A DNA stretch of 64,000 nucleotides from NCBI GenBank assembly GCA_049602055.1, contig JBMYRG010000013.1:12384-76383 (forward strand), read 5' to 3'. The notes below the pieces were generated by a model, which did no database searches, had not been told where the DNA came from, and worked only from the letters and a program-made list of their open reading frames with translations. The stretch is from Alphaproteobacteria bacterium. Lineage in GTDB: Bacteria; Pseudomonadota; Alphaproteobacteria; MPNO01; UBA2964. Shown here piece by piece: positions 24,467-62,035 of the stretch. Made by a program: the position numbers and the translations under genes. The stretch's first letter is position 1. Every line of letters starts with the position of its first letter.

Positions 24467-24468
24467 AC

Positions 24469-25962: not shown

Positions 25963-26107
25963 CGGTGGAGTCTCCTAAATCATATTGATACGCCAAACTA
26001 AGACGATGGGCCCGATCTGTAAATCCAGCTTGCACCGATAGGCTGGCGTGACGAGAGGTTTCGTGCGATGAGATAAAATACCTCAAAGAAATCTAGCGGG
26101 TTCTCCT

Positions 26108-29455: not shown

Positions 29456-30315
29456 TTCTTTTTACTCTGCTGAATAGCGTACCAAGCAGCGCCAAAAATG
29501 ATCACCGCCCCAAACCAGGTCCAGAGATCAGGGAACTCGCCAAACACCATAAAGCCCATTGCGGCAGCGATCGGCATGCGCAGGAAGTTCATTGGCTGTA
29601 CGACCCGCGCATCGGCCAGCGAGATACTGGAGGCCACACAAAACTGCGCCAGCGTTGCGAACAACGCCACGGCGATCAGGATCGGCCAGTCTGTCGCAAC
29701 CGGTGTTTTCCAGGTCAGATATGCTGGTATCACGGCAAGCACCAGAACAAGAACGTTGACGTAAAATGTCATCACCATCGGCGAGTCCTGACGCGACAGC
29801 ACTTTAATACAGGTATTTACAAACGCGTATGCCGCTGCCGTGCCGAGCGCTGCAATGACACCAAGCGAAACAGGTATATAGCCTGGTCGGATAATGACCG
29901 TCACACCCAGAAAACCGATTAATGCTGCCAACCAGCTTTTGGCGCTGACTTTCTCGCGCAACAAAATTGCCGCAACGGCAATCGTGAAGAGTGGCGAAAC
30001 AAACTGGATAGCGAAGAAGTCACCAACGGGTATTTTTTCAGTGGCGTAGAACCATAAAAGAATCGAGATATAAGTTAATACGGCCCGCACGCAATGTAGT
30101 GGAAAAGCGGTGGTTTTTAACTCCTTGAGATCGCCCCGCAGGATCAGCGGTGTGAGAACGATCACCCCGACAACACAGCGCAAAAATGTTAGTTCAAAGG
30201 TCGGATAACTACCCGCCAGATAGCGAGTCAGCGTCGCTGAGGATACATAGCAAACCGACGCGCCAAGCATCCACAGAGCGCCCTTGATAGCATTGGAATA
30301 GGCAGCATCGGTCAC
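29452..30315 (-). CDS. DMT/EamA transporter, array member 4 (the GTG start forms a GTGA overlap with the upstream gene)
   Basis: Paralog. The start is placed at the GTG at 30315..30313 (VTDAAYSNAIKGALWML), aligned to the N-termini of the sibling genes. The ORF-track extension to 30546 overlaps the upstream gene by 235 nt and is rejected. Confidence 0.75.
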   Translation of the reverse strand: MTDAAYSNAIKGALWMLGASVCYVSSATLTRYLAGSYPTFELTFLRCVVGVIVLTPLILRGDLKELKTTAFPLHCVRAVLTYISILLWFYATEKIPVGDFFAIQFVSPLFTIAVAAILLREKVSAKSWLAALIGFLGVTVIIRPGYIPVSLGVIAALGTAAAYAFVNTCIKVLSRQDSPMVMTFYVNVLVLVLAVIPAYLTWKTPVATDWPILIAVALFATLAQFCVASSISLADARVVQPMNFLRMPIAAAMGFMVFGEFPDLWTWFGAVIIFGAAWYAIQQSKKK

Positions 30316-31199
30316 TTGGTCGTGGCCTCCTCGCGAATGACATAATACGCAGCCCCAAAAATGACCACGGCACCAACCCAGGTCCAAATGCCGGGCAGCT
30401 GGCCGAACATCACATACCCAACGGCCACCGTAAATGGCATGCGGAGGAAGTCGAACGGCCAGACAATACGCGCATCTGCCGTCGCTATCGCCCGTGCCAG
30501 CGCCCACTGCCCAGCCGTCGTAAAGACGCCAAGGGCTATTATCCATCCGAGAGTGTGTAACGGGGGCAATTGCCAGGCAAATAACAGCGGAATTGCCGCC
30601 ACAACGACCATCACCAGATTGCCAAAGACAGTGATTGTCGTCGTACTTTCAGTGCGCGACAGTTTCTTAATAAAGATATTTGTACAGCTATAGAGCACTG
30701 CGGAAGTGAGTGCTGCCAGCGCCGCGATGGTAATAGTCTCAAACCCCGGTCTCAAAATAATCAGGGTGCCGATAAATCCGACGATGCAGGCTACCCAGCT
30801 ACCAACGCGCGCCTTTTCCCCGAGGAACAGTATCGCCGCGAGAATCATAAAAAGCGGCAGGGTGAATTGCAGGGCATAGACATCAGCGATTGGCATGTTC
30901 GCCAGGGCATAATATGTCGCGCCCATCGCCAGGTAGGTGAACAGGCCGCGCAACAAAAACAGATGCCAGTTCTTCAGGGACTCTTTCCCTGTTGAACCAA
31001 TATGCTTACACAGAAAGGGCAGCAATATGACCGTCGCAACGACCGAACGCCAAAACACAATCTCCATCGTGTTTAGATCGGACGACAACTGCTTAACCAG
31101 TCCGGCATTTATTGAATAGCCGATACCAGACAGTACCATCCACGCGATGCCACGCATGGCAGCGCTGCGGTTGGTCGTGCTGGCGTTGGCCGCGGTCAT
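30312..31199 (-). CDS. DMT/EamA transporter, array member 3
   Basis: Paralog. ATGA overlap with member 2 at 31196-31199. Confidence 0.85.
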   Translation of the reverse strand: MTAANASTTNRSAAMRGIAWMVLSGIGYSINAGLVKQLSSDLNTMEIVFWRSVVATVILLPFLCKHIGSTGKESLKNWHLFLLRGLFTYLAMGATYYALANMPIADVYALQFTLPLFMILAAILFLGEKARVGSWVACIVGFIGTLIILRPGFETITIAALAALTSAVLYSCTNIFIKKLSRTESTTTITVFGNLVMVVVAAIPLLFAWQLPPLHTLGWIIALGVFTTAGQWALARAIATADARIVWPFDFLRMPFTVAVGYVMFGQLPGIWTWVGAVVIFGAAYYVIREEATTK

Positions 31200-32080
31200 G
31201 CCTTTTTTACGCCTCGGCTTTCGCGACGCAGCACATCATAGGCTCCCGCAAAAATGACGACAGCACCAACCCAGGTCCAGATATCTGGCAACTCTGCAAA
31301 CATGACCCATCCAACAGCCACCGACCACGGCAGCCGTAAAAAATTGACTGATTGCACTATGCGGGCATCGGCTTCACGTATGGAGAATGTGAGGCAAACC
31401 ATTGCCAACATAAACAGCACCCCCATGAACAAAATCCCCGGCACTTGTTCCCAGCTCGGTGTCACCCAGTTAATCGCGGCGGGAACAATGGAAAGTAGCG
31501 CCACGATCGAATTAGACACCATCGTAATCATGATAGGGCTCTCGCTGCTGCCGAGTTTGCGAATGGTGATATTGGCTGCAGCAAAAGCGAAAGCCGACAC
31601 AATTGCAGCAAGAGCGCCGGGATTCATCGGGATGATACCCGGACGCACGATGATGAGCGCCCCACAAAAACCGATTACGCAAGATAGCCAACCCCGCAGA
31701 CCGACATACTCTCCGAGTAATAAACCTGCGAGCAAAATAGTGAACAGCGGTACGGTAAAGAGCAGTGATTGGACGTTCGCAATATCCATTACAGAATAGG
31801 CATAGAAAGAAGCGTACATCCCGCCGAACGACAGCAACCCACGAAGGATGTAGAGACCTGAGCGACGACGAATGCCAGCAAATGATCCTTTGTCGAGGCG
31901 CATTGCCAACGGCAGGAGTAACAGGGCGCTGATGCTGCTAAAGAAGAAAAGAAGTTCTGCAACGCCGAAGTCGAAGGACAGTTTTCTGACAAAGCCGCTC
32001 GCCAAAGCCTGAAAGGCTGTTGCCAGCACCATCCACAGAACACCACGGACGACGGCGTTTGATAAAATTCCATTTTTCAT
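31196..32080 (-). CDS. DMT/EamA transporter, array member 2
   Basis: Paralog. The start is set at MKNGILSN (32080), giving an ATGA overlap with member 1. The longer ORF-track version is rejected. Confidence 0.8.
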   Translation of the reverse strand: MKNGILSNAVVRGVLWMVLATAFQALASGFVRKLSFDFGVAELLFFFSSISALLLLPLAMRLDKGSFAGIRRRSGLYILRGLLSFGGMYASFYAYSVMDIANVQSLLFTVPLFTILLAGLLLGEYVGLRGWLSCVIGFCGALIIVRPGIIPMNPGALAAIVSAFAFAAANITIRKLGSSESPIMITMVSNSIVALLSIVPAAINWVTPSWEQVPGILFMGVLFMLAMVCLTFSIREADARIVQSVNFLRLPWSVAVGWVMFAELPDIWTWVGAVVIFAGAYDVLRRESRGVKKA

Positions 32081-32970
32081 GATGTTGGGGATCCAGTCGG
32101 TGCTTGGTTGGCGTTTCGTATTTTGGTTTCGCGCCACACTATGTAGTAAGACGCACCAAAAATCACTGCTGCACCAACCCAGGTCCAAATATCGGGCAAT
32201 TCAAGAAACATGACGTAACCAATCAATGCGGCAAATATCATTCGGGTGAACTGGAAGGGTTGGACCACACGGGCATCCGCTGCACCAACCGCCATCGTAA
32301 AACAGATGCCCCCGACAGCACTGAAAAACGCCGCCCCAAATATCCACGGGATTTGCTCCAGAGTTGGCGTTACCCAGATAAAGACGGTTGGGATCATTGC
32401 CAGCGGCAGCATAAGCAAATTGGAATAAACCGTAATGGTTCCAACACTTTCCGTTCTGGTTAGTAGCTTTATCGTGGTGTTGGAGCCTGCTGACATCATT
32501 GCGGAAGCAATAGCAGCAACTGCGGCCAAGGTAAGCTCGATAACGCCAGGTCGCATAACTATTAACGCTCCGGCAAAGCCAACGAGGCATGCCGCCCAAG
32601 CCTGACGATCTGTTTGTTGTTTAAGGATAAATACGGCGAGCATGATCGTGAACAAGGGGATGGTGAATTGCAGGGCAAACACATCCGCAATCGGCATTTC
32701 TCCCCAGGCGTAAAACAGCGTGACCATCGCGGTATAGGCGAAAAATACCCGTAGACAATATAGAGGTAGGCGACTGGTTCGCATCACGCCAAACCCCTCA
32801 CGAAAAAGCCAGGGCACTAGTAGAAGCAAACCAACAACATTTCGGAAAAGGACCAGCTCTAAAGTCGGCACTTCACCCGCGAGCTGGCGTACACAGGCAC
32901 CGGCTGCAGCGCTGAGCAACATTGCCAGACTCATCCAAAGAATCCCGGCGATAGGACGGTTTGGTTTCAA
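32077..32970 (-). CDS. DMT/EamA transporter, array member 1 (5'-most)
   Basis: Paralog (297 aa) with the conserved 'ADARVVQPFQFTRMIFAALIGYVMFLELPDIWTWVGAAVIF' C-terminus. Confidence 0.85.
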   Translation of the reverse strand: MKPNRPIAGILWMSLAMLLSAAAGACVRQLAGEVPTLELVLFRNVVGLLLLVPWLFREGFGVMRTSRLPLYCLRVFFAYTAMVTLFYAWGEMPIADVFALQFTIPLFTIMLAVFILKQQTDRQAWAACLVGFAGALIVMRPGVIELTLAAVAAIASAMMSAGSNTTIKLLTRTESVGTITVYSNLLMLPLAMIPTVFIWVTPTLEQIPWIFGAAFFSAVGGICFTMAVGAADARVVQPFQFTRMIFAALIGYVMFLELPDIWTWVGAAVIFGASYYIVWRETKIRNANQAPTGSPTS

Positions 32971-37619: not shown

Positions 37620-38376
37620 GGCACCAATGTCACAAACATCTTCACCAAACAGCACAACGGTAACGTTACCAAGCGGCAAAACCGCTATCGTCAATATCAG
37701 ACGAAGTTCCCGGTCGCGACGGGTGACGTTACGGATAGCACCAGGCACCGGTCAAGCCGAGCTGGTTTTACCGGGCCGTCTTTCTGAAAGAAAAGGAATC
37801 GCCTTTCTACAAAGTAAAACGAGTTGGCTTGAAGAACGGCTCGCCAAATACCCCGACCCAATTCCCTTTGAAGATGGACAAATCGTCCCCTTCCTCGGTG
37901 AGCCCTTAACCATCAGTCACCTAAACGCCAAACGGGCCGACGTTCAAAAAGACGGCGAGCAATTAATAGTCTCGGCACCCACAGCCCGCATTTCCAAGGC
38001 GGTTCACGACTGGTATCGGCGTGAGGCTGGCTGTGAAATTACCCTCTGCGCTAACCAAAAATCAAAGATGCTTGGCACACCTTATGGCCGGTTATCCATT
38101 CGTGACACTAAGAGCCGATGGGGCAGCTGCTCGGCGAGGGGCGATTTAAATTTCTCTTGGCGAGTAGTCATGGCACCCCGCTACGTTCTCGATTATCTGG
38201 TCGCTCATGAAGTTGCTCACCTCGCAGAGATGAACCATTCAACGAGTTTCTGGACCATCGTCGAACAGCTGTCTGATGAATTCGAGAAGGGACGAAAATG
38301 GCTACGCCTAAACGGCCATGAGCTTCATCGCTACGGCGTTGAACTGCCCGCACGTGAAAACCGGGCATCCGAGTAG
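37618..38376 (+). CDS. YgjP-like (DUF45/M48-related) zinc metallohydrolase
   Basis: C-terminal 'YVLDYLVAHEVAHLAEMNHS', the HExxH motif typical of the YgjP family. Length is 252 aa. Confidence 0.7.
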   Translation: MAPMSQTSSPNSTTVTLPSGKTAIVNIRRSSRSRRVTLRIAPGTGQAELVLPGRLSERKGIAFLQSKTSWLEERLAKYPDPIPFEDGQIVPFLGEPLTISHLNAKRADVQKDGEQLIVSAPTARISKAVHDWYRREAGCEITLCANQKSKMLGTPYGRLSIRDTKSRWGSCSARGDLNFSWRVVMAPRYVLDYLVAHEVAHLAEMNHSTSFWTIVEQLSDEFEKGRKWLRLNGHELHRYGVELPARENRASE

Positions 38377-39248
38377 GAATTATAGAAAACCGCCGAGAAA
38401 ATAACGACTGCGCCGACGCCAACCCAGATCTCTGGCACCTGACTAAAGAAGAAATAACCAATCAAGCTCGCCCAAATAACCTTAGTGAAATCAGCCGGTA
38501 GCACCAGGGTCGCATCAGCCTTTCGGAAGGCCTCCGTCAATGCGAGCTGTGAAATTGTTCCAAAAATCGCAATTCCGGCCAGCCACAATAATTGTTCTGC
38601 CGTTGGCCATTGCCAGAAGAATACCGCAAACATAAAGGCGATAGGCGTTTGCAAAAGACTTGAATAGAGCGCCACGGTCACTGATGACTCTGTTCGTGTC
38701 AGTACCTTGATTACGACCAAGGCCACCGCCCACAAACTATTGGATATCAGAACCATTAAGGCGCCAAGAGACACTACCTGTATACCTGGCCGTAAAATTA
38801 TCAGAGCCCCGGCGATACCAATCGCAAGCGCAATCCATCGATGCGGGGTCATACGTTCCCGCAAAAATATGACGGCCCCAACCGTCGCAAAGAGTGGTGC
38901 CGTCAATCCGAGCGAAACCACTTTGGCCAGCGGCTCCAGACTCAATCCATAGAAAAACGCCAGCATCGCCAGAACGTTCAGGACTGATCGCAGGACATGC
39001 AGACCGAACTTCCGAGTGATTAAAGGGCGGAGGCCGCCGCGGAGAAAAAGCGCGGACATAAATATCAGGCCAAGCAACTGCCGAAAAAACGCGATTTCAA
39101 AGACATGCAGGTTGCTGTGTGACAGATGCTGGACAGCCCCGTTCGCGCCGGATATGGATGCCGCAGAGCCAAGCATGAACCCGACCCCTTTGGCACCATC
39201 GGGCGCCGAGCCAAATAGCGCGGATAGTCGGGTCTTTATATTGGCCAT
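38331..39248 (-). CDS. DMT-superfamily transporter (EamA family)
   Basis: 10 TM segments. Contains 'ILRPGIQVVS' and 'ADFTKVIWASLIGYFFFSQVPEIWVGVGAVVIF'. Confidence 0.75.
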   Translation of the reverse strand: MANIKTRLSALFGSAPDGAKGVGFMLGSAASISGANGAVQHLSHSNLHVFEIAFFRQLLGLIFMSALFLRGGLRPLITRKFGLHVLRSVLNVLAMLAFFYGLSLEPLAKVVSLGLTAPLFATVGAVIFLRERMTPHRWIALAIGIAGALIILRPGIQVVSLGALMVLISNSLWAVALVVIKVLTRTESSVTVALYSSLLQTPIAFMFAVFFWQWPTAEQLLWLAGIAIFGTISQLALTEAFRKADATLVLPADFTKVIWASLIGYFFFSQVPEIWVGVGAVVIFSAVFYNSYSDARFSRAGSSTP

Positions 39249-39360: not shown

Positions 39361-40392
39361 ATGAAAACTGACGCCTTCGATTTCGATCTCCCAAAAGAGC
39401 TAATCGCCCAGGAGCCCGCCACACCCCGGGATTCAGCGCGCCTGCTGCATATCGGCGAAGATCTTGTCGATCTTTCGGTTCGAGATTTACCAAAGCTAAT
39501 CAATCCTCGCGACGTTTTGGTCGTCAATAATACAAAGGTCATTCCTGCCCGTTTGCGCGGACGCCGGGGGGAAGCGTCAATCGAGATCACGCTACACAAA
39601 CGCAACGGCGATGAAACCTGGTGCGCCTTTGCGCGCCCCGCAAAACGCCTGCGCGAAGGCGACATCATAGAATTCGCCTCCAACTTTTCTGCTGCCGTTG
39701 TTGAGAAAAGAGATAGCGGCGAGATTGTTGTCGGGTTTTCAGGACAAGAGGTTTTCAGTGGCCTTGCTGAAAATGGCTTTATGCCCCTGCCACCCTACAT
39801 AGGTCGAAAAGAAGGCGTCAGAGAAACCGATCACCAAGACTATCAGACAGTTTATGCTGCCAAAGCTGGTGCGGTTGCCGCACCAACCGCTGGACTTCAT
39901 TTTACGGACTCCTTGCTATCAGAAATAAAAAACGTGGGTATCGACATCGTTGAACTCACTTTGCATGTAGGCGCTGGCACGTTCCTCCCGGTGAAGGTCG
40001 AGGATACCGACGAACACAAAATGCATTCTGAATGGGGACAGCTCGATGAAACAGCTGTCCAGAGGATAATGAAAGCACGTCATGCCGGTGGCAAAGTAAT
40101 GGCGTGCGGCACTACCGCACTACGGCTCCTGGAATCAGCGGCGCCTGCTGTTGGAGAACTCGCCCCCTTTGAGGGCGATACTGATATATTTATTACGCCC
40201 GGCTATAAATTTCGGATTGTCGATAGATTGATAACAAATTTTCATCTGCCCTGTTCAACCCTGTTCATGTTGGTTTCGGCCTTTTCAGGGCTTGGCCGGA
40301 TGAAGGCCGCCTACGCCCATGCCGTCAATTCGAAATATCGCTTCTATTCCTATGGCGACGCCTGTTTGCTGGAGAAAAACGAGCCATCATGA
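39361..40392 (+). CDS. queA: S-adenosylmethionine:tRNA ribosyltransferase-isomerase
   Basis: '[14 protein letters not shown]...R..SRLL', '[13 protein letters not shown]', '[10 protein letters not shown]' are QueA hallmarks. Length is 343 aa. Confidence 0.9.
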
Positions 40393-41528
40393 CCCCGACT
40401 GGCATCAAATTCGAACTTATTGCCACCGATGGTGCCGCTCGTCGGGGCCGTCTATCAACCGCTCATGGCGAGATCAATACACCGGCGTTTATGCCTGTAG
40501 GTACAGCAGGAACCGTAAAAGCCATGATGCCAGAAGATGTCGCAGCAACGGGTGCTGAGATCATCTTAGGGAACACCTATCATCTGATGCTACGCCCGAC
40601 GGCTGAGCGGGTCGCCAGGCTAGGCGGATTGCATCGATTTATGAATTGGCCAAAACCAATCCTCACCGATTCCGGCGGTTACCAAGTGTTCTCGCTTTCG
40701 AAGCGGCGGACGATCAGCGAGGACGGTGTCATCTTTCAGTCTCACATCGATGGCACGAAAATTGACCTAACACCGGAACGCTCAATAGAAATTCAAAATC
40801 TGCTCGGTTCCAACATCACGATGGTTCTGGATGAATGCACTGAGTGGCCTATATCAGAACCGGATGCCCGCAAATCGATGGAGCTTTCCATGCGGTGGGC
40901 GGTCCGCTGCAAAGAAGTCTTTGACGCAAGACCAGGCTACGGGCTGTTTGGCATTGTCCAGGGAAGCATGTACCGCGAACTTCGCCATGAATCTGCAGCG
41001 CGATTAATTGAAACCGGATTTGATGGCTACGCGGTTGGCGGGTTAGCCATTGGCGAACCACAAGACGTCATGTTTGAAGTGCTTGACTATACGGTCCCTA
41101 GCCTGCCTAAGGAACGACCCCATTATCTGATGGGTGTCGGCAAGCCAGGCGATATCGTTGGCGCTGTTCAACGCGGGATCGATATGTTCGATTGCGTCAT
41201 TCCAACTCGATCAGGTCGTACCGGCCAGGCCTTTGTCCGCGGCGGCTCGCTCAACCTTCGCAATGCAAAACATACGGAGGATGAAAGACCGCTTGATACG
41301 CGCTGTACATGTCGAGTTTGCACCAACTATAGCCGGGCCTATCTTCACCACCTCATTAAAGCCGGCGAAATGCTGGCGGGAATGCTTTTGACACTGCACA
41401 ACCTGCATTACTATCAGGCCTTGATGGCCGCCATGCGTGACGCGATTGAGAATGAAACGATGAGTAACTTCGTGGCCACATTTGCTGCGGAACAAGAAGC
41501 TGGTGCAGTTGTGTCGGAAACCAAATAG
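40389..41528 (+). CDS. tgt: Queuine tRNA-ribosyltransferase (tRNA-guanine transglycosylase)
   Basis: '[13 protein letters not shown]', a Zn site 'C.C..C...H', and 'HNLHYY'. ATGA overlap with queA. Confidence 0.9.
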
Positions 41529-41544
41529 ATGACGGAGATAGTCA

Positions 41545-42009
41545 ATGACTGCGAATAGTGACGAAACATTGACCCAACTTGGTGCCCATACGCCGATGCC
41601 GGCATCTCCAGAAGAAGCGGTATTGGAGCGGGTCAGCAATCCACAAACGGGTACGATGTATCTCGCGAGGTTTACCTGCCCGGAATTCACCAGCCTGTGC
41701 CCGGTTACCGGCCAGCCCGATTTTGCTCATCTGGTTATCGACTACGCGCCGAACGAATGGATTGTCGAAAGCAAGTCCTTAAAGCTTTTTCTTGGGTCAT
41801 TCAGAAATCACGGTGCTTTTCATGAAGATTGTACGGTCGGCATTGCAAAACGGCTTGAAGAATTACTGTCACCACATTGGTTAAGGATTGGCGGTTATTG
41901 GTATCCGCGGGGCGGTATGCCGATAGACGTGTTCTATCAAAATGGCCATCCGCCCGCTGATCTGTGGATTCCGGATCAAGGCGTCTCTACCTATCGCGGG
42001 CGCGGGTGA
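41545..42009 (+). CDS. queF: NADPH-dependent 7-cyano-7-deazaguanine (preQ0) reductase, type I
   Basis: '[24 protein letters not shown]' contains the catalytic Cys and QueF motif. Length is 154 aa. Confidence 0.85.
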
Positions 42010-43142
42010 GCAAAGCACAACCAGACAAAGCAGACGCAACAGCTTCGATAAGGGATCGCGCCCTGACATTGGGGTTTGACGTTGTTGGGTTTGCGCCAGC
42101 AACGCTCAGCGAGAAAGCGCGTGAACGTCTCTGTGATTATATTTCAAACGGATATCACGGCGATATGGGCTGGCTAGCCGAACGCACTCAGCAGCGATCT
42201 CAACCAACGGATCTATGGCCAGAGGCGAAAAGTGTAATCGTCGTCGGATTGAATTACGGCCCGAAAGACGACCCGCTAGAAGTGCTCGACAAGCCCGAGC
42301 GTGGTGCAATTTCCGTATATGCCCGTGGACGGGATTATCACGATGTCGCCAAAAAGAAACTCCGGGTTCTCGCCCGATATATCGCCGATGATCTCGACGG
42401 TGACGTAAAGCTTTTTGTCGATACTGCGCCGGTTATGGAAAAGCCACTAGCTGCAAAGGCTGGACTTGGATGGCAAGGTAAACACACAAACCTGGTGTCG
42501 AAGACCGCCGGGTCCTGGCTTTTCCTGGGCGAAATCTACACGACCTTATCATTGGCTGAGGAGAGTGAAGGCGAAAACAACTGTGGTAGTTGCTCTCGCT
42601 GTCTCTCTGCCTGTCCCACAAATGCCTTCCCGGCACCTTATAAGCTCGATGCTCGCCGATGTATCTCGTATTTAACAATTGAGCATAAGGGTCACATTCC
42701 CCTCGAATTCAGAGAAGCAATTGGCAATCGGATTTATGGCTGCGACGATTGTCTCGCTGTTTGCCCTTGGAATAAATTTGCACACCTAACGAACGAACCA
42801 GAACTTGAAGCTAGGCTGGAGTTACGGTGGCCGCGGCTCGTAGACCTGGTGCAGCTGGATGATGCCGCCTTTAGACAAATCTTCTCAGGTTCACCGGTAA
42901 AACGGCTGGGCCGTGATCGATTTATCCGAAATGTCCTGATCGCCATCGGCAACAGCAGGATGGCCGAGTTAATACCTTATGCAGAAGCTAAACTAGAAGA
43001 CAAATCCCCGTTGGTAAGGGCAATGGCTGTGTGGGCTCTTTCACACCTAATATCATCCAATTCATATGCGAAATTGCGCTCAATTCATCAGAAGAATGAA
43101 CCCGACATAGAGGTTCAGCAAGAATGGGAGGACAGAGGTTAA
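42006..43142 (+). CDS. queG: Epoxyqueuosine reductase
   Basis: 4Fe-4S ferredoxin motifs '[16 protein letters not shown]' and '[13 protein letters not shown]', plus a C-terminal HEAT-like region. The start is set at the GTG at 42006 (GTGA overlap with the queF stop) rather than the ORF-track ATG at 41964. Confidence 0.8.
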
Positions 43143-43290
43143 TCCTGGGATTTAGCGGCGTTTGGCTGTGTACTGTCGGTAAATTTTACAGTTAGGTCAT
43201 ATCAAATTGCAGCTACCCTTGATAACTAGCTGGAATCCATCATTTTAACGACAATGGCACACTTCTTGCTTCGACGTAGCGGGGCAGTGT

Positions 43291-44136
43291 GTGCTTCACA
43301 AAGTATTTACACTGAAAATATGGTCAATGACGGTTTTAAAGTTCAGGAACAGGATGATTGCGATGATGATTGCCGCCTTTGGTGTGATCATTGCTGTGTC
43401 CGGACCTGCCCATGCCATCGCGACTTATAGCTCCAGTTCCTCAGCGACGGTGACGATAACAGGATTCAGCACAACCTCAGGGCCCGTTTCCAAACCACCG
43501 ACACTCGTAATCGAGGGTACGTCGGAAGCGAGCCTTCCCGAGAGTGGGACGGTTACGAGCGGTACGGCTAGTGCTGCAATAACCGAATCAACCCTGATAA
43601 TTTCAGGGACACCTTTGGCGATTATCACCGCTGACAGCGTCTCTAACATGTCTACCGCTAGCGGTAGCGCGGCGCCTCTCGGGGGACAGTCCACCTCAGA
43701 CTAGGTTACAAATGGTGAAATATTTTTCGGCAATGCCGGCACCGAAGATATCACTGTCACGTTAGGAATTGATTGGGCCTATTCTGTCATGGCGTCGACC
43801 TCTGGCATAAACCAAAAAGCGATCTCCTTCTCCAGCATCATTGTAGACACGTTGATTTTTGACTCGATCGGCGAACAAGTAGGTGAAGATATTTTCGACG
43901 TTGATCAACTCGCAATAGCGAATGGTCTTAACGGCACTTCCGAATCGTTTTCAGATTCTGATATTTTCTCGGTTGATGTTGTCGTTCTCGCAGGGTCGGT
44001 TACCAGCGTCGGTCTTTTTGTCGATGCTCGGGGATATGCTGAAGTTCCCGCGCCACCTTCATTCGCCCTATTGTCCTTGGCGGTGATCGGTATTGGATTT
44101 ATCCGACACCGCAGGGCACGACCGCTCTCGACGTAA
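43291..44136 (+). pseudogene. Ser/Thr-rich secreted protein with a PEP-CTERM-like C-terminal sorting signal, interrupted by a single in-frame TAG at 43702-43704
   Basis: ORFs 43291..43704 (signal peptide ...AVSGPAHA, S/T-rich) and 43789..44136 (C-terminus 'VPAPPSFALLSLAVIGIGFIRHRRAR') are in the same frame. Only one amber codon lies between them. All 28 codons from 43705 to 43788 are sense codons. Confidence 0.5.
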
Positions 44137-44138
44137 AA

Positions 44139-44363
44139 ATGATGTTGCCTGCATCAAACAAAGGTAATTCGCCTAATAAAAACACCGAACGACCTAACCA
44201 ACGAATAGAGATTGAAGGCGAGCCCGATCTGCTTACAGGAACTCTGGATAAGTGGCACGCCTATAGGCAGGCGCTTTCAGTATTACCGCAGGAAAATGAG
44301 AATGTCCGGGTTGCGATCGCTGTCGCAGATGCCAGAATCGCTAGATTGAACGCTGACAAATAA
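44139..44363 (+). CDS. Small hypothetical protein (74 aa)
   Basis: ORF only. Low-complexity N-terminus. It may be non-coding. Confidence 0.2.
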   Translation: MMLPASNKGNSPNKNTERPNQRIEIEGEPDLLTGTLDKWHAYRQALSVLPQENENVRVAIAVADARIARLNADK

Positions 44364-44403
44364 TTCTGGAATGATGTGATCTATTATTTCGGCGAAGTAA
44401 TCC

Positions 44404-45426
44404 TCAGTGCCGACGCTGCACCTTCAGATAATCATGACGATCACCTGACCGGATAACAACGTCGATTTGGCGCGATCCACGCACAACGCTAATACTAACA
44501 TCGGCGCCTGCACCACCGGCCGACCAAATCTTACGATACATGTCTGATAGGCTTTCGACAGCCTGAGATTCAATTTCTTCGATAATATCACCAACCTGTA
44601 AATCAGCTTGATCCGCCGGCCCACCATCGTGAACTCCTGAAACAACCAAATGCCCCAGCGCTTCAGTTGTTTGCATCCCTAACCAAGGCTTTGCGTTCTT
44701 TTGCGCACGTCCGGTATCTACAAGCTCTTGATAAATTGGCGGCAACAAATCGATTGGGACAAACATGTTCCCCTGACTTTCACTGCTATTCCCTCCGGGA
44801 TCCTGAACAAACAGCGATCCAATTCCGACAAGAGAGCCGGAACGAGGGTCAATTAGAGCACCACCACTCCATCTCGGATGCAACGGTGCAGTGAAAATTG
44901 CGGAATCGAGCAAATATTCCCAAGAACCTGCAAACTCTCGTCGGTCAACAACGTGCCCTAATATTGCGGACGGAATACCTCCCGATGCTGCGACAACAAC
45001 CTGATCATCGGTCAATATATTGTCGACATTGGAAGCTATCGGAAGTGGTGTGAGATCGAGAGGTTTCACAGTTCTGACCAAACCAAATCCGGTTCTATGG
45101 TCATATCCAACAACCTGTGCCGGAACCTCATCGCCATTTGGTCCACCGATTTCTATGTCTGTCGCCTCGGTTATCAGATAGCCAATTGTAACCAGAGTAC
45201 CGTCGGTATCGATGAGTACGGCATTGCCTTCTCTCTCCGTGCCAAGATTTCTGGCACTATGAGCGTCAGCCGGTATTTTAGACCGCAGCGACCTTACCGC
45301 GGATAACCCCACCTCAAGATCAAAGGCGACATCGTCGTCAGTTGGCTGTGGCCCTGGCATAGGGGGTTCACCCAGAGGCAAGATGCCATCAAGTCTGTGC
45401 CCATTGGCGCGCGTTACTTCTGTCAA
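44404..45426 (-). CDS. Trypsin-like serine protease (S1C/HtrA-like) with a C-terminal PDZ domain
   Basis: 'HPRWSGGALID' oxyanion/Ser region, and the PDZ-like segment 'LVVSGVHDGGPADQADLQVGDIIEEIESQAV'. No obvious signal peptide. Confidence 0.65.
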   Translation of the reverse strand: MTEVTRANGHRLDGILPLGEPPMPGPQPTDDDVAFDLEVGLSAVRSLRSKIPADAHSARNLGTEREGNAVLIDTDGTLVTIGYLITEATDIEIGGPNGDEVPAQVVGYDHRTGFGLVRTVKPLDLTPLPIASNVDNILTDDQVVVAASGGIPSAILGHVVDRREFAGSWEYLLDSAIFTAPLHPRWSGGALIDPRSGSLVGIGSLFVQDPGGNSSESQGNMFVPIDLLPPIYQELVDTGRAQKNAKPWLGMQTTEALGHLVVSGVHDGGPADQADLQVGDIIEEIESQAVESLSDMYRKIWSAGGAGADVSISVVRGSRQIDVVIRSGDRHDYLKVQRRH

Positions 45427-45776
45427 TTTTTCTATCCCGTTTAAAGTATATTATTCTTTATTATTCAGCAGACCTATTATCAGGAGACACGACCTTGGTG
45501 ACAACAATTGATACTCCAACAGCAAGCTCACAAGGCCAGGGGAATAAAAATTCCTAAAATCCAATAGGAGTCGGTAAATTAGGGAAGCCAAAAACACATC
45601 ACTGGTTGAAATAAGTTTAATCCATGCCATTAATTTTATAATTTTTTCGAATTTTTTCTGTTACCCATTGAAATATAAAAGAAATTCTAATTCTTCGGCT
45701 CAGATATTTCTTGCGAACTGTCTTTGAAATAAACGATTATTTCCCGTAGTGTCCATATAACAACGAATTAAAGTCT

Positions 45777-46655
45777 GTGCCAGATAGACGGGGGTTTTCT
45801 GGCCACCTATCAGGGTCGATGACTTATAAGATGAATCGTTCGATTACCTCCGCAGTAGCAATAGTCTTGCTTTTGTCCGCGATCGTCAGCGCCCCGTTTA
45901 ATCGGGCAAATGCTTTGATGTTCGTAATCGATTTCGATCCAGTTGGAATCTACGGTGGCCTTAATACAGTGGCCATGTCTTCATTCGATGTAACGCCTTA
46001 CGGATTTAGTAGTGGGCAAAGGAATACCGTTATTGCGTCTATAATGACAGAACTCAAAAACGACTTTCACAATATAGTTTCCCCTTCTATTCCCTCGGGT
46101 CAGCAACTTGCTGTCGATTTTGTCCGAGGAACGATCGGCGATGGTGGTGCTACGGCAAATGGCGACAGCAATTATTACTATGTTGCCGTGGGAAACGCCA
46201 ATAACGCGAGTGAACCACTCGGAGAAGCGTTCTTAAATAGTGCGTTCGGCCTCGCGGGCAACACCATTGCAGCCTTATATACCGATGAAATCTTCTCGGG
46301 TATTTTGAATGCTCATGGAACGGCTGGTGACCTGTTTCAGACGACCCACGTCATAGAGGGCACTCTCGCGCATGAGATCGGCCATACGCTCGGTCTGGAG
46401 CATTGTAATTTTTCAGGTGCGGTAACGCCAAATGGACTCGACCCGCTGATGGCATCCGGCGCAACAGGACTACCCAACGCGAACCGGCTGAATGATCGAG
46501 AATTTTCGACATCATGCATAGAGGGGGCAGGGACACAAGCCACCATCGAACTTCTGGCAGCGAACGTGGGATTAGAGGATACACCCATTCCTAAGCCAGC
46601 GACGATCTTAATTTTTGGAATTGGTATCGCAGGATTCCGGTTTATACGGCGCTAA
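45777..46655 (+). CDS. Secreted metzincin-type zinc metalloprotease with a PEP-CTERM-like C-terminal anchor
   Basis: Signal peptide (...SAIVSAPFNRANA), zinc motif 'HEIGHTLGLEH' (HExxHxxGxxH), and the C-terminus 'PIPKPATILIFGIGIAGFRFIRR'. The likely start is a downstream Met (MTYKMNRS). Confidence 0.7.
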   Translation: MPDRRGFSGHLSGSMTYKMNRSITSAVAIVLLLSAIVSAPFNRANALMFVIDFDPVGIYGGLNTVAMSSFDVTPYGFSSGQRNTVIASIMTELKNDFHNIVSPSIPSGQQLAVDFVRGTIGDGGATANGDSNYYYVAVGNANNASEPLGEAFLNSAFGLAGNTIAALYTDEIFSGILNAHGTAGDLFQTTHVIEGTLAHEIGHTLGLEHCNFSGAVTPNGLDPLMASGATGLPNANRLNDREFSTSCIEGAGTQATIELLAANVGLEDTPIPKPATILIFGIGIAGFRFIRR

Positions 46656-46675
46656 ACCCACCTTTCAAAAAAGCT

Positions 46676-47500
46676 CTATAGCCTCTCTATAAAATTTACC
46701 ATTCGTTGACGCATCTCGGCGTCCGGCAAATCTCCTAGCCCGGAGGCCATGTTATCCAACATATGCGATATGACTCCGGTTGCGGGAATGAGACAGGTAA
46801 CCGCCGGATTTCCAAGCAGATATTTTAAAAAGAACGCAGCCCAGCTCTCACAGCCAAATTCTTTGGCCCAATCCGGTAACGGCTTTCCTCGAACGGCGCC
46901 AAAGATATTTCCACCATCGAAGGGGCGATTGACGATTATGGCAACGCCATTATCCGCCGCCAACGGCAACAACTCGCGTTCTGCCTCTCGCACAGCGATG
47001 GAATAGGGTAACTGCACAAAATCCATCGACTCCGACGTGATGATGTCAGCCAGTTGATCAAAGGCGCGCGGTATATAATGGGTAATCCCGATATAGCGGA
47101 TCAGGCCCTGCTCTTTCCAATCGCGAAGCGTCGAAAGATGTGTCCGCCAATCCACCAGATTATGAATCTGCATGAGATCAATCACGTCAACACGCAACAA
47201 CTCCTTTGAACGGCGCATTTGATCGATGCCGTGCTGCCTGCCTTCTGTCCAAACTTTTGTCGCGATAAAGGCACTATTTCGGTGTTCTGTCGTACTCAGC
47301 AACTCGCCAACAACGCGTTCCGCTGCACCATACATCGGCGAGCTATCGATCATCGACCCTCGACCATCAAACAATGCGTTCAAGACAGCTGTGCGCGATG
47401 AACGTTCCGAATAGCCTTCACCAATATCAAAAGATCGCCAGGTTCCCAAGCCGATGACCGGCAACAGTTCTCCACTCGACGGTATCGCTCGCGTCAACAT
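46676..47500 (-). CDS. Aldo/keto reductase
   Basis: 'GLGTW', 'YGAAERVVGE', and 'IGITHY' motifs in an AKR (beta/alpha)8 pattern. Length is 274 aa. Confidence 0.8.
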   Translation of the reverse strand: MLTRAIPSSGELLPVIGLGTWRSFDIGEGYSERSSRTAVLNALFDGRGSMIDSSPMYGAAERVVGELLSTTEHRNSAFIATKVWTEGRQHGIDQMRRSKELLRVDVIDLMQIHNLVDWRTHLSTLRDWKEQGLIRYIGITHYIPRAFDQLADIITSESMDFVQLPYSIAVREAERELLPLAADNGVAIIVNRPFDGGNIFGAVRGKPLPDWAKEFGCESWAAFFLKYLLGNPAVTCLIPATGVISHMLDNMASGLGDLPDAEMRQRMVNFIERL

Positions 47501-48388: not shown

Positions 48389-49360
48389 GTGTCAGGGTGG
48401 CGCGCACATTGCCTTGAAATGTCCAAATCCCCAGAAACCAAGCCACCAGGACTAACTTTCATGGCGCCCATTCTCGAGCGCTGGAGCCTCATTTCACCAA
48501 ACATACGGGGCGCCTGTTTTGTGGTTGTTGGCGCCTTTCTGCTGATCGTAATGGCGTCACTCGTCAAACATCTCGGCAAGACATTGCCTGCCTTCGAGGT
48601 GCTGTTTGTTCGTTTTCTAGCCGGTCTAATTGTCATCACACCACTCGTATGGCGAATGGGTCTAGGAATCGTCAAAACTTCAAAAATACATCTCCACGCA
48701 GCGCGTGGATTTGTCGGGTTCATGGGCAACCTTTGTTTCTTTTTTGCGTTGATACACATCACTCTGGCAGACACAGTAACCATTCAGTTTTCGCGTCCGA
48801 TGATCATGATTGTTGTTGCAGCGCTCTTCCTGAATGAAGTGATCGGATTTAAGCGCGGTATCGTCACATTGTTAGGGTTCAGTGGAATCCTACTAATAAC
48901 AAAACCCTTCGGAGTCGGATTTGATCCCTGGTATCTGGTTGCTCTGGGTGGAACCGTATTTGGTACGGGAGTCGTCCTGACGGTTAAACTGCTAAGCCGT
49001 ACAGAATCGACGGTAACGATAATGTTCTACTTCGCGTTATTCACCACGCTACTGGCTTTCATTCCGGCAATGTTTGTCTGGCAGACCCCGACTTGGACGG
49101 AGCTCATTCTTCTCGCCCTCACCGGCACGCTCGGAATCGTTGGCCAAGGACTGTTCACGCATGGCGTCGGACTCGGAGAAACCAGCTTCGTAATGCCATT
49201 TGATTACATGCGGATCGTTTATGCATTCTTCCTTGGCATCATATGGTTCTCGGAGACTCCTGGTTGGTGGAGTTATGGTGGTGCCGCGATCATTATCGGC
49301 AGCAGTGTCTATCTTCTGCGAACTGGAAACGCGAAAAAGGCCGTAGCGAAAGAAGATTGA
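48389..49360 (+). CDS. DMT-superfamily transporter (EamA family)
   Basis: 10 TM segments. Contains 'GETSFVMPFDYMRIVYAFFLGIIWFSETPGWWSYGGAAIIIGS'. The start is uncertain (MSKSPET or MAPILERW). Confidence 0.7.
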   Translation: MSGWRAHCLEMSKSPETKPPGLTFMAPILERWSLISPNIRGACFVVVGAFLLIVMASLVKHLGKTLPAFEVLFVRFLAGLIVITPLVWRMGLGIVKTSKIHLHAARGFVGFMGNLCFFFALIHITLADTVTIQFSRPMIMIVVAALFLNEVIGFKRGIVTLLGFSGILLITKPFGVGFDPWYLVALGGTVFGTGVVLTVKLLSRTESTVTIMFYFALFTTLLAFIPAMFVWQTPTWTELILLALTGTLGIVGQGLFTHGVGLGETSFVMPFDYMRIVYAFFLGIIWFSETPGWWSYGGAAIIIGSSVYLLRTGNAKKAVAKED

Positions 49361-50471: not shown

Positions 50472-51797
50472 ATGACCAGTGTCGATGCCTTTATCGCTGC
50501 CAACCGGTTTGGGCTTGGTCCCAAAGGCGGATATCTGGGTGGAATAGCTGCCGATCCACAAAGCTGGTTAATGCGCCAACTCGGAACAGAAGATGGCGCA
50601 CTCCCACATCTGCAAGATTTACCGACAAGCGAAGCAGTCGTTCGTACCTGGATGCAGGCACGAGGCTCGCGCGAAATGCGCAAAATATTCAGCAAAAATC
50701 GCATAAAACCGTTATTTCGCAAAGAAATCATACAACGCACCCGGGCTGCGATTGAGACCGACACGCCGTTTCGAGAGCGTCTGGTTAGGTTCTGGAGCAA
50801 CCATTTTACCGTTTCGATCACCAAAGGCCGCGTTAGGGGAATCGCTGGCGCATTTGAACGCGAGGCCATCAGACCTTTCGCCACTGGCAACTTCGCCGAC
50901 ATGCTGTTGGCGGTCATGCGACATCCCGCCATGCTTATCTATCTCGATAATCAGGCCTCTATCGGCCCCAATTCGCGACTGGGCAAAAAAAGAAATAAAG
51001 GTCTAAACGAGAACCTGGCTCGCGAAATTCTTGAACTACACACGTTGGGCGTGAACGGTGGCTATACGCAAGATGATGTCATCGCTTTAGCCAAGATGTT
51101 GACTGGATGGTCGGTCGCGGGAAAACGCTCCCCTCACGCCGGACGATTCAAATTTAATGCACAACGGCATGAACCCGGCGCAAAGCAATTTATGGGAAGG
51201 CGTTATCACGAAGACGGCGAGGAGGAAGCAGAGCAGGCACTTCGCGCACTCGTCAAACATCCTTCTACTTCCCGGTTCGTCGCAACAAAACTTGCCCGGC
51301 ATTTTGTATCGGACAGCCCCTCCGCTCAAGTCGTGGGCCAGCTCCAGAGAAAATTCCAGGAAACCGGTGGCGATCTTGGTGCCATGGCGCGTGAACTCAT
51401 TACGCTGTCAGCCATATGGGACGAGCCCCTTACCAAAGTTAAATCACCCAGTGAGCTGGTCATTTCCGTCATGCGTATGTTGGGGCCACCCTAAAAACCC
51501 AAGCAAATGATCCATCCATTACGATTGTTGGGTCAATTGCCCTTCTCCGCTCCCTCACCAGCGGGGTGGCCTGATACGGCGAAAGACTGGATTAGTCCAG
51601 AATCTTTGTTACGCCGTATTGAACTTATGGATTTCCTGGCACGCCGCCAAACAACGCGCGAGGACCCCATAACACTTGCGGATCAAGCATTTGGCCCCGT
51701 CGCCCGCGAAGAAACTTTACTGGCTATCAGACGGGCGCCAAGCCGTCGGGCCGCTTTTTCTGTTCTTCTCTCTAGCCCCGAATTTCAGCGGAGATAA
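50472..51797 (+). pseudogene. DUF1800-family protein interrupted by one in-frame TAA (51492-51494)
   Basis: ORFs 50472..51494 and 51507..51797 share a frame. The only stop between them is the TAA. The downstream piece ends '...LLSSPEFQRR', like the DUF1800 C-termini I recall. Together they give about 440 aa, a typical DUF1800 length. Confidence 0.5.
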
Positions 51798-51800
51798 CTT

Positions 51801-52999
51801 ATGACATCACGTCGTGGATTCCTGATGGGCGCGACCGCCGCCGGATTGTTAAGCGCCGTTGCACTCCCTGGCATTGCTGTCGCTGCTGCAAACACAAAAA
51901 AACGATTTGTCCTTGTCATTTTACGTGGCGGGATGGATGGATTGGCTGCCTTCCCGCCAATTGGTGACCCCGATTACCAGTCGCTTCGCAGCGGCTTAGC
52001 CCAAGCGGCAGATGACACTATTGCCCTTGACGGTAATTTTTCAATGCATAAGTCGTTGGCACCGCTGATGAAACATTACAAAAAACGTCATATGGCCGTT
52101 GTCCATGCCGTAGCTGTTCCACAACGGACTCGTTCGCATTTTGACGCCCAAAACGTTCTCGAAAACGGCGCTTCTAAAGCGCATTTATTACAAGACGGCT
52201 GGCTCAATCGAGCCTTAAGGGTGATTGATTATAGGGAACAACGGCTCGGATTGTCTGTTGGGTACAGCACACCACCCGTGATGCGCGGAACGACCCCCAC
52301 CACTTCATGGGCGCCAGCCCGCATCCCCCTTCGCCACCTGATCTACTTGATACATTGGGGAGCCTATACCAATCCGACCCTATACTAGGTCGAGCACTCA
52401 ACGAAGGACGGCGGGCGCAGGAGATGACGGGCGCTGTCCTCGGCGATACCAAAATGAAACGAGGCAATATGCGTAGCCCTGGACGATTTAAATCACTTGC
52501 TGAATCTGCCGGAAGACTACTCGCGGCAGAGCAAGGCGCCAGGATCGCGGTCATTGAGATGGGTGGCTGGGACACACACGCAAATCAAGGAGCAACGACC
52601 GGGCGATTAGCGCGCAATCTCGGACTGTTAGCGAACGGGCTTAACGAACTTTCACTGCAACTCGGTCCTGTTTGGCGAGATACTGTTGTCTGCGTCGTCA
52701 CCGAGTTTGGCAGAACTGTCCGCATGAATGGCAGCAAAGGCACCGACCACGGAACCGCAGGCGCCGCTATTTTACTAGGCGGGGCGATTGCTGGTGGACG
52801 GGTCGCAACGCGATGGCCCGGATTAGCGCCGAACGCCCTTTATGGCGGCCGGGATTTAGCCCCGACAACACATATGCGTGGCCTGTTCAAAACCGTTCTG
52901 CATAATCACCTCAATATTCCCTCAGCTGCCCTCGACCAGAAAGTATTCCCAGACAGTAAAAAAGCCGAAGCACCACTAGGACAACTTGTTCGGATATAG
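51801..52999 (+). pseudogene. DUF1501-family (Tat-signal, sulfatase-like) protein with a frameshift near 52328-52334
   Basis: An N-terminal twin-arginine signal 'SRRGFLMGATAAG' and 'VLVILRGGMDGL' are in frame 0. Frame 2 continues from 'PSPPDLLDTLGSLYQSDP...' to the 'GTDHG' C-terminus. The junction falls at a CCCCC run. Confidence 0.55.
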
Positions 53000-54467: not shown

Positions 54468-55580
54468 ATGTCAAACAAGATTTCAACTTTATCCGCCCTT
54501 GCAGTGATTCCAGTCACCGCATTGTTGGCGTTGGGTCCCGCATCTGCTGCGGACGCACCAAAAAATCTGCAAGAACTTATTGCAGGGGCAAAAAAAGAGT
54601 CGACACTGCGCATTTTATGGTCGTCCGCCAGCTTAAACGGGAGTAAAGGCGCCAAACATATCGTCTCTTCCATGAATAAAAAGTATGGCACGAACATCAA
54701 AGTAAAATTCACACCAGGGCCTTCCATGACCCGGGTTATCGCTAAGCTTACCCGCGAAATGAAGGCGGGTCAGAATGCCAGTTCCGATGTTGTCTGGAAT
54801 AACTCCGGTGGCTCACTAAAGGGTTCAAAAATTGGGCTGTTCCGCAAGATGAACTGGCTGAATTATCTCAGTCGCCCCATGCTTAAGGAAAAAGGCTTCG
54901 ATCCGGTCGCCCCCAATGGCACTGGCATTGCAAGCGCAGGGACACTCGTTGGCGTCGTTTACAACAGCGATATGGTAAAGGGTGCCGATATTCCAAAGAC
55001 TCTCGCCGACACGCTAAGACCCAAATGGAAAGGCAAAATTGCATCAACCCCTTACGCAGCGGGCATGCGGGAATTTGCCATGCCTGATCTCTTGGGCACG
55101 GAGAAAATGACGGCCTACACCAAGAAGCTGTCTGACAATATTGGTGGCCTGATGCGTTGTGGTTCAATGAATAAGATCACCAGCGGTGAGTTTCTGATGC
55201 TGGTTTTGAGCTGTGGCGATCAGTATGTAAATCAGGCAAAGCGTCGTGGTGAACCGCTTGGCTATGCCCTGATGGACGAAGCAGTTGTTTCACATACACG
55301 CTATGGCTCTGTCCCAACACATTCACAATCGCCAAACGCTGCAGCCCTGTTCATCGTCTGGCTGCACAGCAAAGAAGGACAGAAATGGATGTGGGAAAAA
55401 GTCGGTATGGATTTACCACTGTACCCCGAGTCCCATATGCGGAAAAAAATTCTTGCCCAAAAAGCTAAGGGTGCAAAAATCGTTATGAATTCCCCGCAAT
55501 GGCTGGGTGCTCAAGGCGGTTATGTAAAAACCCGTAAAGCCCTTCAGAAGATTCTGAAAAAGAAGAAAAAGAAAAAATAG
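54468..55580 (+). CDS. ABC transporter periplasmic substrate-binding protein (SBP family 1, Fe(III)/polyamine-type) with a C-terminal poly-Lys tail
   Basis: Signal peptide, 370 aa mature SBP. It ends '...ALQKILKKKKKKK'. RBS is GGTAAGGAGG. Confidence 0.75.
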   Translation: MSNKISTLSALAVIPVTALLALGPASAADAPKNLQELIAGAKKESTLRILWSSASLNGSKGAKHIVSSMNKKYGTNIKVKFTPGPSMTRVIAKLTREMKAGQNASSDVVWNNSGGSLKGSKIGLFRKMNWLNYLSRPMLKEKGFDPVAPNGTGIASAGTLVGVVYNSDMVKGADIPKTLADTLRPKWKGKIASTPYAAGMREFAMPDLLGTEKMTAYTKKLSDNIGGLMRCGSMNKITSGEFLMLVLSCGDQYVNQAKRRGEPLGYALMDEAVVSHTRYGSVPTHSQSPNAAALFIVWLHSKEGQKWMWEKVGMDLPLYPESHMRKKILAQKAKGAKIVMNSPQWLGAQGGYVKTRKALQKILKKKKKKK

Positions 55581-62030: not shown

Positions 62031-62035
62031 TAACC

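Follow-up and report, generated by a model that had tools for sequence, protein, structure and literature searches.

In the PEP-CTERM/exosortase (EpsH/XrtA) system, cargo proteins have a signal peptide and a C-terminal motif, transmembrane (TM) helix, and basic cluster (PMC1569441). PEP-CTERM proteins and EpsH co-occur perfectly; EpsH sits in exopolysaccharide (EPS) loci, and the PEP-CTERM genes mostly stand as operons of one gene preceded by a large upstream region (Haft et al. 2006, PMC1569441). In proteobacterial PEP-CTERM genes, a 17-nt motif ending in TTTACA is separated by a spacer of 62.8 ± 10.6 nt from a sigma-54 −24/−12 site, which lies at a mean of 71 nt from the start codon, and this enhancer motif was ascribed to the regulator PrsR (Haft et al. 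2006, PMC1569441). The pepA gene of Aquincola, which has a TGGCAC promoter, was found by experiment to be RpoN-dependent (PMC9850573). We analyzed positions 43143–46655 of a stretch of 64,000 nt from an alphaproteobacterium (contig JBMYRG010000013.1; the whole stretch is called the window hereafter), for which a preliminary description had noted a metzincin gene and an interrupted gene whose products end in similar, sorting-signal-like tails. From the results described below, this segment is likely to be chromosomal, ancestral to a clade of marine alphaproteobacteria and syntenic within it, and to carry two genes for cargo of the PEP-CTERM/exosortase system.

The segment was flanked by queG (41964–43142) and an aldo/keto reductase gene (46676–47500, minus strand), and it contained four genes, encoding an interrupted surface protein, a small protein of 74 amino acids (aa), an HtrA-like protein with trypsin-like and PDZ domains, and the metzincin. 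Every element listed in the preliminary description was found in its place. The gene order queA–tgt–queF–queG, surface protein, small open reading frame (ORF; about 73–74 aa), HtrA-like protein, metzincin, (reductase), short-chain dehydrogenase/reductase, and EamA was kept in several assemblies, among them the metagenome-assembled genomes (MAGs) GCA_012103315.1 and GCA_012263305.1, a "Rhodospirillaceae bacterium" assembly (GCA_002720855.1), contigs from Tara, and a nearly identical contig from Logan. The members of the clade were MAGs labelled "Rhodospirillaceae bacterium" or "Alphaproteobacteria bacterium". Each of the relatives examined had the segment at this position, and in the most distant syntenic relatives the identity of the metzincin was just 62–66%.

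The metzincin (45819–46655, plus strand) and the surface protein (43327–44136, plus strand) both had a tripartite C-terminus consisting of a proline motif, a hydrophobic helix of about 14 residues, and a terminal basic cluster. The metzincin tail, IPKPATILIFGIGIAGFRFIRR (46587–46652, with a Lys codon at 46593–46595), gave the C-terminal end PIPKPATILIFGIGIAGFRFIRR, and the surface-protein tail, VPAPPS...RHRRARPLST (44044–44133), formed the end VPAPPSFALLSLAVIGIGFIRHRRARPLST of the product read through the internal stop codon. A six-frame scan of the window for C-termini with proline, hydrophobic, and basic parts flagged four ORFs, of which only these two had the full architecture; the others were one ORF for an EamA-type transporter and one of 66 aa. 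Sixteen homologues of the metzincin were found among 5.8 billion proteins, spanning close relatives among the Alphaproteobacteria and, at the far end, a MAG of Planctomycetota. A PxP motif was located at the aligned position in 15 of the 16 homologues (VPEP or IPEP in 12, and PVP or PLP in three), the sixteenth being a frameshifted fragment, and the window protein had IPKP. Nine of the 17 family members matched TIGR02595 (E ≤ 0.05), two matched the VPLPA-CTERM variant, and two homologues are named "PEP-CTERM sorting domain-containing protein" by NCBI. The tail of the window metzincin was in register with VPEP tails that bear a precomputed PF07589 match and the NCBI PEP-CTERM name. The surface-protein tails across the clade read VPAPSS, VPAPPS, VSEPSS, VTAPSS, or VSAPSS, with the VSEP form in the orthologues from two loci (L005 and L007) and a canonical PEP in none. 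Because of the homology to recognized PEP-CTERM tails, we assigned the tails to PEP-CTERM despite profile scores below threshold. The preliminary description had taken both tails for sorting signals of this kind, and the canonical PEP of orthologues, the NCBI name of an orthologue, and the PEP-CTERM box upstream of one of the two genes support it; the tails can be identified from these comparisons as real PEP-CTERM sorting domains in a variant form.

The PEP-CTERM box was recognized by aligning the upstream regions of the surface-protein gene from three diverged lineages, in which two conserved blocks were found, both of them exact in the window. The first, TGTCGGTAAATTTTACA (43174–43190, plus strand), was motif 1 of the box, the putative PrsR enhancer site, and its pattern was matched exactly nowhere else in the window. 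The second, TGGCACACTTCTTGC (43255–43269, plus strand), was a sigma-54 −24/−12 promoter located 64 nt past motif 1, with the ATG 57 nt further on. The gene shares with the PrsK/PrsR/sigma-54 regulon the small gene size, the 17-nt motif ending in TTTACA, the spacer of about 63 nt, the sigma-54 site, and the large upstream intergenic region. The composite pattern TGTCGG-N5-TTTACA-N(48–78)-TGGCAY-N5-TTGC was then scanned in 185,579 species genomes. With 596 gigabases, both strands, 31 spacings, and 22 specified bases, about four matches were expected by chance, whereas at least 120 loci (121 matches) were found. Among the matches listed, to which the following counts also refer, nearly all were in Alpha-, Beta-, and Gammaproteobacteria and Desulfuromonadaceae, and the spacers between the enhancer and the sigma-54 site were grouped at 52–53, 62–64, and 74–75 nt, with a period of approximately 10.5–11 bp. 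This quantization implies that the activator and the sigma-54 holoenzyme are under a face-of-helix constraint, and the 64-nt spacer of the window was within the main peak. For 93 matches the ORF downstream was complete, 100 aa or longer, and could be evaluated, and 70 of these ORFs (median length, 243 aa) ended in a hydrophobic helix and a basic cluster, indicating that the box predicts PEP-CTERM genes. The motif in the 70 tails was PEP in 59, PAP in five, PLP in two, and PGP, PVP, and SEP in one each, with one unrecognizable. PAP, the commonest alternative to PEP, is also the motif of the surface protein and most of its orthologues. A second exact match to TGGCAC-N5-TTGC in the window (54917–54931) was located inside the coding region of a substrate-binding protein; it had no exact enhancer motif nearby, only two matches with two mismatches each just downstream, and is probably due to chance.

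The surface-protein gene, the interrupted gene of the preliminary description, consisted of two ORF pieces (43291–43704 and 43789–44136) that shared one frame and were broken only by a TAG at 43702–43704. When read through, it encoded a protein of approximately 269 aa with a Ser/Thr-rich body and a signal peptide, MIAMMIAAFGVIIAVSGPAHA, ending in GPAHA and followed by IAT (read by eye). The orthologues in relatives were intact, with 260–273 aa, and had Gln (CAG) where the window has the stop, so that one C-to-T change from CAG to TAG is the simplest account of the lesion. Sequencing error was ruled out as the source of the TAG, since the split halves recurred on up to nine contigs of NCBI, JGI, ENA, and Logan, and this recurrence in independent assemblies together with the existence of intact alleles (P0199 and P0201) indicated that the stop is real and polymorphic. 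Reassignment of a stop codon was also ruled out, because TAA, TAG, and TGA ended 25, 20, and 16 normal genes of the window, respectively, the in-frame stops of the disrupted genes differed (one TAG and one TAA), and the third lesion was a frameshift. The disrupted genes of the window are ordinary pseudogenes. There were three of them within 10 kb, the other two being a DUF1800/DUF1501 pair (50472–52999) that is intact in relatives. The DUF1800 gene had an in-frame TAA at 51492–51494, giving 340 + 96 aa as compared with 441 aa in relatives, and the DUF1501 gene was separated by a frameshift into 51801–52388 and 52424–52999, with 398–399 aa in relatives. The surface protein was similar to the floc-associated PepA of Zoogloea and Aquincola (NF033554), which is likewise a PEP-CTERM protein of 240–270 aa with a TGGCAC-type sigma-54 promoter and an upstream enhancer. 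However, the sequence similarity was weak and limited to the C-terminus (E = 7.7e-5), and a score of 22.6 bits against a cutoff of 80 indicated that the surface protein is not an equivalog of PepA. Unlike PepA, the surface-protein family was confined to one marine alphaproteobacterial clade, with 14 matches, all of at least 54% identity.

The metzincin ORF started at 45777 or 45819 and ended at 46655. From the second start (MTYKM), it encoded 278 aa with a signal peptide, MNRSITSAVAIVLLLSAIVSAPFNRANA, ending in NRANA and followed by Leu (read by eye). The zinc-site sequence HEIGHTLGLEH, to which the preliminary description had drawn attention, was encoded at 46371–46403. In the alignment of the 17 family members, His185, Glu186, His189, and His195 of the HExxHxxGxxH motif were invariant, and Met211, located 16 residues downstream of the zinc site as a Met-turn, was near-invariant (at least 90% conserved). 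The best Foldseek matches of the AlphaFold model (pTM 0.71) were all metzincins, namely ADAM10 (E = 5.6e-5), ADAM17/TACE, and snake-venom M12B reprolysins including acutolysin, so that the adamalysin/ADAM (M12B) catalytic domain was the nearest fold. The NCBIfam matches were all far under their cutoffs. Since the zinc site and the Met were conserved, the best fold matches, at low TM-scores, were metzincins, and no family cutoff was passed, the protein is assigned from its sequence and model to the metzincin clan as a member of an undescribed family and a predicted protease. The myxosortase-dependent MXAN_2677/2678 family (NF041905) and the SVAGG GlyGly-CTERM family (NF038115) are likewise zinc metzincins with the HExxHxxGxxH motif, a Met-turn, and a C-terminal sorting tag. 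However, the sequence match with them was confined to the zinc-site helix (E = 0.005–0.03), and both the sorting signal and the sorting enzyme are different. The metzincin gene was linked to neither the HtrA-like nor the surface-protein gene at the Planctomycetota locus or at one other distant locus. A weakly conserved block, GC.CAG..TTT.CTT.C, was observed upstream of the metzincin gene.

No exosortase was found among the ten multi-TM ORFs of the window that were scanned (EamA, MFS, TctA, ABC permease, Vut_1, and one unmatched 446-aa ORF), the scan leaving aside four EamA-paralogue-like ORFs and one 167-aa ORF. The 446-aa ORF matched no Pfam or NCBIfam model, including the exosortase models. 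Exosortase genes were also not found in the 10-kb flanks of relatives or near the distant metzincin homologues, nor among the 10 of 22 multi-TM ORFs tested in the 8-kb loci of other PEP-CTERM-box genes. Within the reach of these scans, the preliminary description was therefore right that an exosortase is missing from the window, but its distance from the cargo genes is no anomaly: the absence of a nearby exosortase is expected because EpsH lies in EPS loci and cargo genes mostly stand alone, and this separation is common to the known system and to the present locus. The box, exact in three lineages, and the PEP kept in the metzincin orthologues are indirect evidence that the clade may possess an exosortase system. 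The 446-aa ORF (20817–22157) had about 12 TM segments, and its neighbor was a 428-aa single-TM ORF (22242–23528) without an NCBIfam match.

We propose that the surface-protein gene would be transcribed, probably together with the 74-aa ORF, from the sigma-54 promoter upon activation from the PEP-CTERM box, the presumed site of PrsR, with PrsK and PrsR presumably encoded, like the exosortase, elsewhere in the genome. Its product would be a Ser/Thr-rich surface protein resembling PepA in size, tail, and regulation, and in this strain the gene is inactivated by the nonsense mutation. The metzincin, with its adamalysin-like fold, would be exported by the Sec pathway and held in the inner membrane by the C-terminal helix and basic cluster, as the family model predicts, and the exosortase would then cleave it at the PEP motif for delivery to the cell surface or the EPS layer. 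Sorting of the metzincin may be impaired in this haplotype because its motif is PKP. The HtrA-like protein would probably be a noncatalytic peptide binder, and a separate, conserved promoter of the sigma-70 type, situated in the AT-rich spacer, would drive its expression.

Several observations weigh against this interpretation. Cleavage, surface display, and protease activity are predictions from sequence, and the 64-kb window showed no gene for an exosortase, PrsK, PrsR, or RpoN. The metzincin gene had no PEP-CTERM box; its best sigma-54 match agreed at 7 of 10 positions and was not accompanied by motif 1. The metzincin model had a pLDDT of 69, which is medium confidence, the TM-scores of its fold matches were just 0.3–0.4, and the protein reached no Pfam or NCBIfam protease family (Peptidase_M10, 22.0 against a cutoff of 24; Reprolysin_3, 21.9 against 22.4). 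The two tails scored 16.6 and 14.5 with PF07589, below the cutoff of 20.7, and with TIGR02595 the surface-protein tail scored 12.8 against a cutoff of 16 and the metzincin had no match. The near-invariant Glu was missing from both tails, the metzincin having PKP and the surface protein PAP, and PKP was seen in none of the 70 listed tails downstream of the box. The window therefore differs from the canonical PEP-CTERM system in its PKP and PAP motifs, its sub-cutoff scores with hidden Markov models, one cargo pseudogene, and a metzincin gene without a box.

Allelic variation at the locus bears on how these deviations arose. Two metzincin haplotypes were present within the cluster of at least 90% identity to which the window protein belongs: IPKP...GIGIAG, carried by the window and by an NCBI MAG (locus tag ACPGPC_09110), and IPEP...GIGLAG. 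Since the IPEP allele coexists at this level of identity, the Lys is a recent, strain-level replacement of the signature Glu. When positions 39361–47500 were compared with the sister strain L132, queA, tgt, and queF were 99.8–100% identical and the sequence from queG onward was 94–98% identical, a drop suggesting that a boundary of homologous recombination lies at queG or within it. Between these two strains, the ratio of nonsynonymous to synonymous substitution rates (dN/dS) of the metzincin gene was 1.24, from small counts of about 16 amino-acid and about 4 synonymous differences, whereas that of queG, the surface protein, the HtrA-like protein, and the reductase was 0.10–0.22. The surface-protein gene of L132 had an independent frameshift caused by a 1-bp insertion.

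Such variation would also be expected if the lineage had lost, or were losing, exosortase-dependent sorting, so that the tails were relics, at most plain membrane anchors, and the genes were drifting to pseudogenes. In favor of decay, one haplotype combines the nonsense codon of the surface-protein gene with the PKP of the metzincin, in independent assemblies that exclude sequencing error; L132 has its own frameshift; the dN/dS of the metzincin gene exceeds that of its neighbors; the DUF1800 and DUF1501 genes nearby are disrupted as well; and the surface-protein family has no canonical PEP throughout the clade. However, the PEP-CTERM box was still exact in both the window and L132, intact surface-protein alleles and IPEP metzincin alleles persist in the population, and among the listed matches from other genomes PAP (5 of 70 tails) is the natural form that most often stands in place of PEP. 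The elevated dN/dS rests on few differences, with derived changes in both haplotypes, and diversifying selection on a surface protease would yield an equal ratio. The signs of relaxed or altered constraint are thus compatible both with decay of the cargo and with diversifying selection combined with ordinary strain-level pseudogenes. We regard decay as an improbable explanation, roughly a one-in-several prospect, and it is to the same degree doubtful that the locus captures a PEP-CTERM system in the course of being dismantled in a free-living marine lineage.

It is very unlikely that the tails are generic C-terminal membrane anchors with no dedicated sorting system, as their sub-threshold PF07589 and TIGR02595 scores and the lack of Glu in both motifs might suggest, because the metzincin tail is homologous column by column with the canonical VPEP tails of its orthologues, Pro258 was invariant and Pro260 near-invariant over the 17 sequences from Alphaproteobacteria to Planctomycetota, and a PEP-CTERM box drives the surface-protein gene.

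The preliminary description had also considered horizontal acquisition, on the ground that the segment is lower in GC content than its flanks. The GC content was indeed 48.0% for 43143–46655 as compared with 51.6% for the window, which placed the segment among the lowest 1.7% of 3.5-kb windows, and the GC content at third codon positions of the HtrA-like gene was 2.5 standard deviations (SD) under the mean. However, the profile of the individual genes did not bear out a foreign origin: the genes of the segment were 0.6–1.3 SD under the mean GC content, with one above the mean, and their codon bias was unremarkable for genes of their lengths. The dip is explained mostly by an unusually high noncoding fraction; other intergenic regions of the window were as AT-rich (32.8–38.8% GC). 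The dip was present in all relatives (48.4–48.6% versus 51.3–51.9% in the flanks), no tRNA genes and no integrase or transposase ORFs were found in the window, and the sole flanking inverted repeat (43178–43201 and 46677–46700), considered as the ends of an island, was rejected as a chance match, its arms being the PrsR box and the sequence coding for the reductase C-terminus MVNFIERL. Since relatives with only 62–66% metzincin identity share both the gene order and the GC dip, insertion of a horizontally acquired low-GC protease cassette between queG and the aldo/keto reductase gene is unsupported, and we give this explanation hardly any credence. The observations of the preliminary description were thus confirmed and its interpretation partly supported: the locus is a vertically inherited pair of PEP-CTERM cargo genes, typical of the known system, and neither an orphan sorting signal nor an imported island.

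The small ORF between the two cargo genes (44139–44363, plus strand) began 2 nt past the stop codon of the surface-protein gene, with which it is probably co-transcribed. It encoded 74 aa without a signal peptide and with an invariant C-terminal ENVRVAIAVADARIARLN. The protein was 66–73% identical in relatives, and the DNA changes gathered at third codon positions, indicating that the ORF is protein-coding. It was called as a gene in three of the related loci (L002, L004, and L007) and belonged to no Pfam or NCBIfam family.

The HtrA-like protein (44404–45426, minus strand; 340 aa) matched Trypsin_2 (54.6 bits) and PDZ_2 (47 bits), both over the cutoff. Like HtrA, DegP, DegQ, and DegS (S1C), it combines a trypsin fold with one PDZ domain; unlike them, it lacks the catalytic His and Asp and a signal peptide, and it scored 72.9 bits with TIGR02037 against a cutoff of 416. 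In an alignment with DegP-like structures, the catalytic His corresponded to Tyr83 and the catalytic Asp to Gly113, with Ser187 retained. In the family, for which 308 cluster representatives were found at E < 1e-30, the His site was Tyr in 120 of 134 sequences, the Asp site Gly in 140 of 141, and the Ser site Ser in 57 of 151, and the family consensus lacked all three triad residues. Alignment of the family profile with DegP (E = 1.5e-35) gave the same residue correspondence, and no alternative conserved His was present in the family alignment. A hydrophobic N-terminal segment was absent from the window protein and its orthologues, in line with the lack of a signal peptide that the preliminary description had noted for the former, and present in 59 of 105 full-length family members, so that signal peptides occur in roughly half of the family. 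These features predict that the window protein is cytoplasmic and probably a noncatalytic pseudoprotease, for which PDZ-mediated peptide binding without hydrolysis is the best inference of a role. The designation of the segment as a secreted-protease islet was therefore too strong, the metzincin being its sole plausible secreted protease. Conserved TIGYL and WEY motifs were shared by the window protein and 150 relatives (P0032–P0181), and the family looks like an undescribed pseudoprotease family.

The HtrA-like and metzincin genes were divergent from an AT-rich intergenic region (45427–45818) of 350–390 bp and 33–36% GC, depending on the start codon chosen for the metzincin. For 45427–45776, which had been described as strongly AT-rich, the value was 32.9%, and the orthologous spacers had 35–37% GC. 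The suggestion of a heavily regulated promoter in this spacer was borne out elsewhere: the sigma-54/enhancer promoter exists, but it is located upstream of the interrupted gene, and the spacer held a sigma-70-like promoter for the HtrA-like gene, TTGTCA-17-GATAAT (45476–45504, minus strand; 10 of 12 positions matched). The promoter lay within a block conserved across lineages, with invariant ATTATC and TGACAAC columns in the spacer alignment. The PEP-CTERM box was not found in the spacer. A riboswitch or small RNA there was rejected for want of a credible Rfam match, the one match having E = 0.54 and 17 bits against a cutoff of 70.

Two further features of the gene content were observed. The queuosine genes queA, tgt, queF, and queG were clustered in a row (39361–43142), and queC with a Vut_1 (YhhQ-like) transporter gene (61305–62620) was located 18 kb downstream; in three relatives (L005–L007) the two groups were only about 12.6 kb apart. 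EamA/DMT paralogues were unusually dense, with at least eight in 64 kb (23525–32188, 38331–39248, and 48389–49360), including a tandem run at 26108–32188.

The metzincin represents an uncharacterized PEP-CTERM metzincin family that extends from Alphaproteobacteria to Planctomycetota and is captured by no Pfam or NCBIfam model. The composite pattern of enhancer and sigma-54 promoter retrieves PEP-CTERM genes across Proteobacteria at high specificity and shows helical phasing. If the less likely explanation by decay were true and the exosortase were lost or unused, the PKP motif would keep in the periplasm, tethered to the membrane for good, a protease that is otherwise released to the surface, and the Glu and Lys alleles would be a natural test of the need for Glu in PEP for exosortase cleavage; we know of no mutational test of this requirement, although no literature search aimed at one was made. 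With PEP and PKP alleles of the metzincin and intact and nonsense alleles of the surface protein paired in one species-level population, the locus could be used to probe exosortase recognition.

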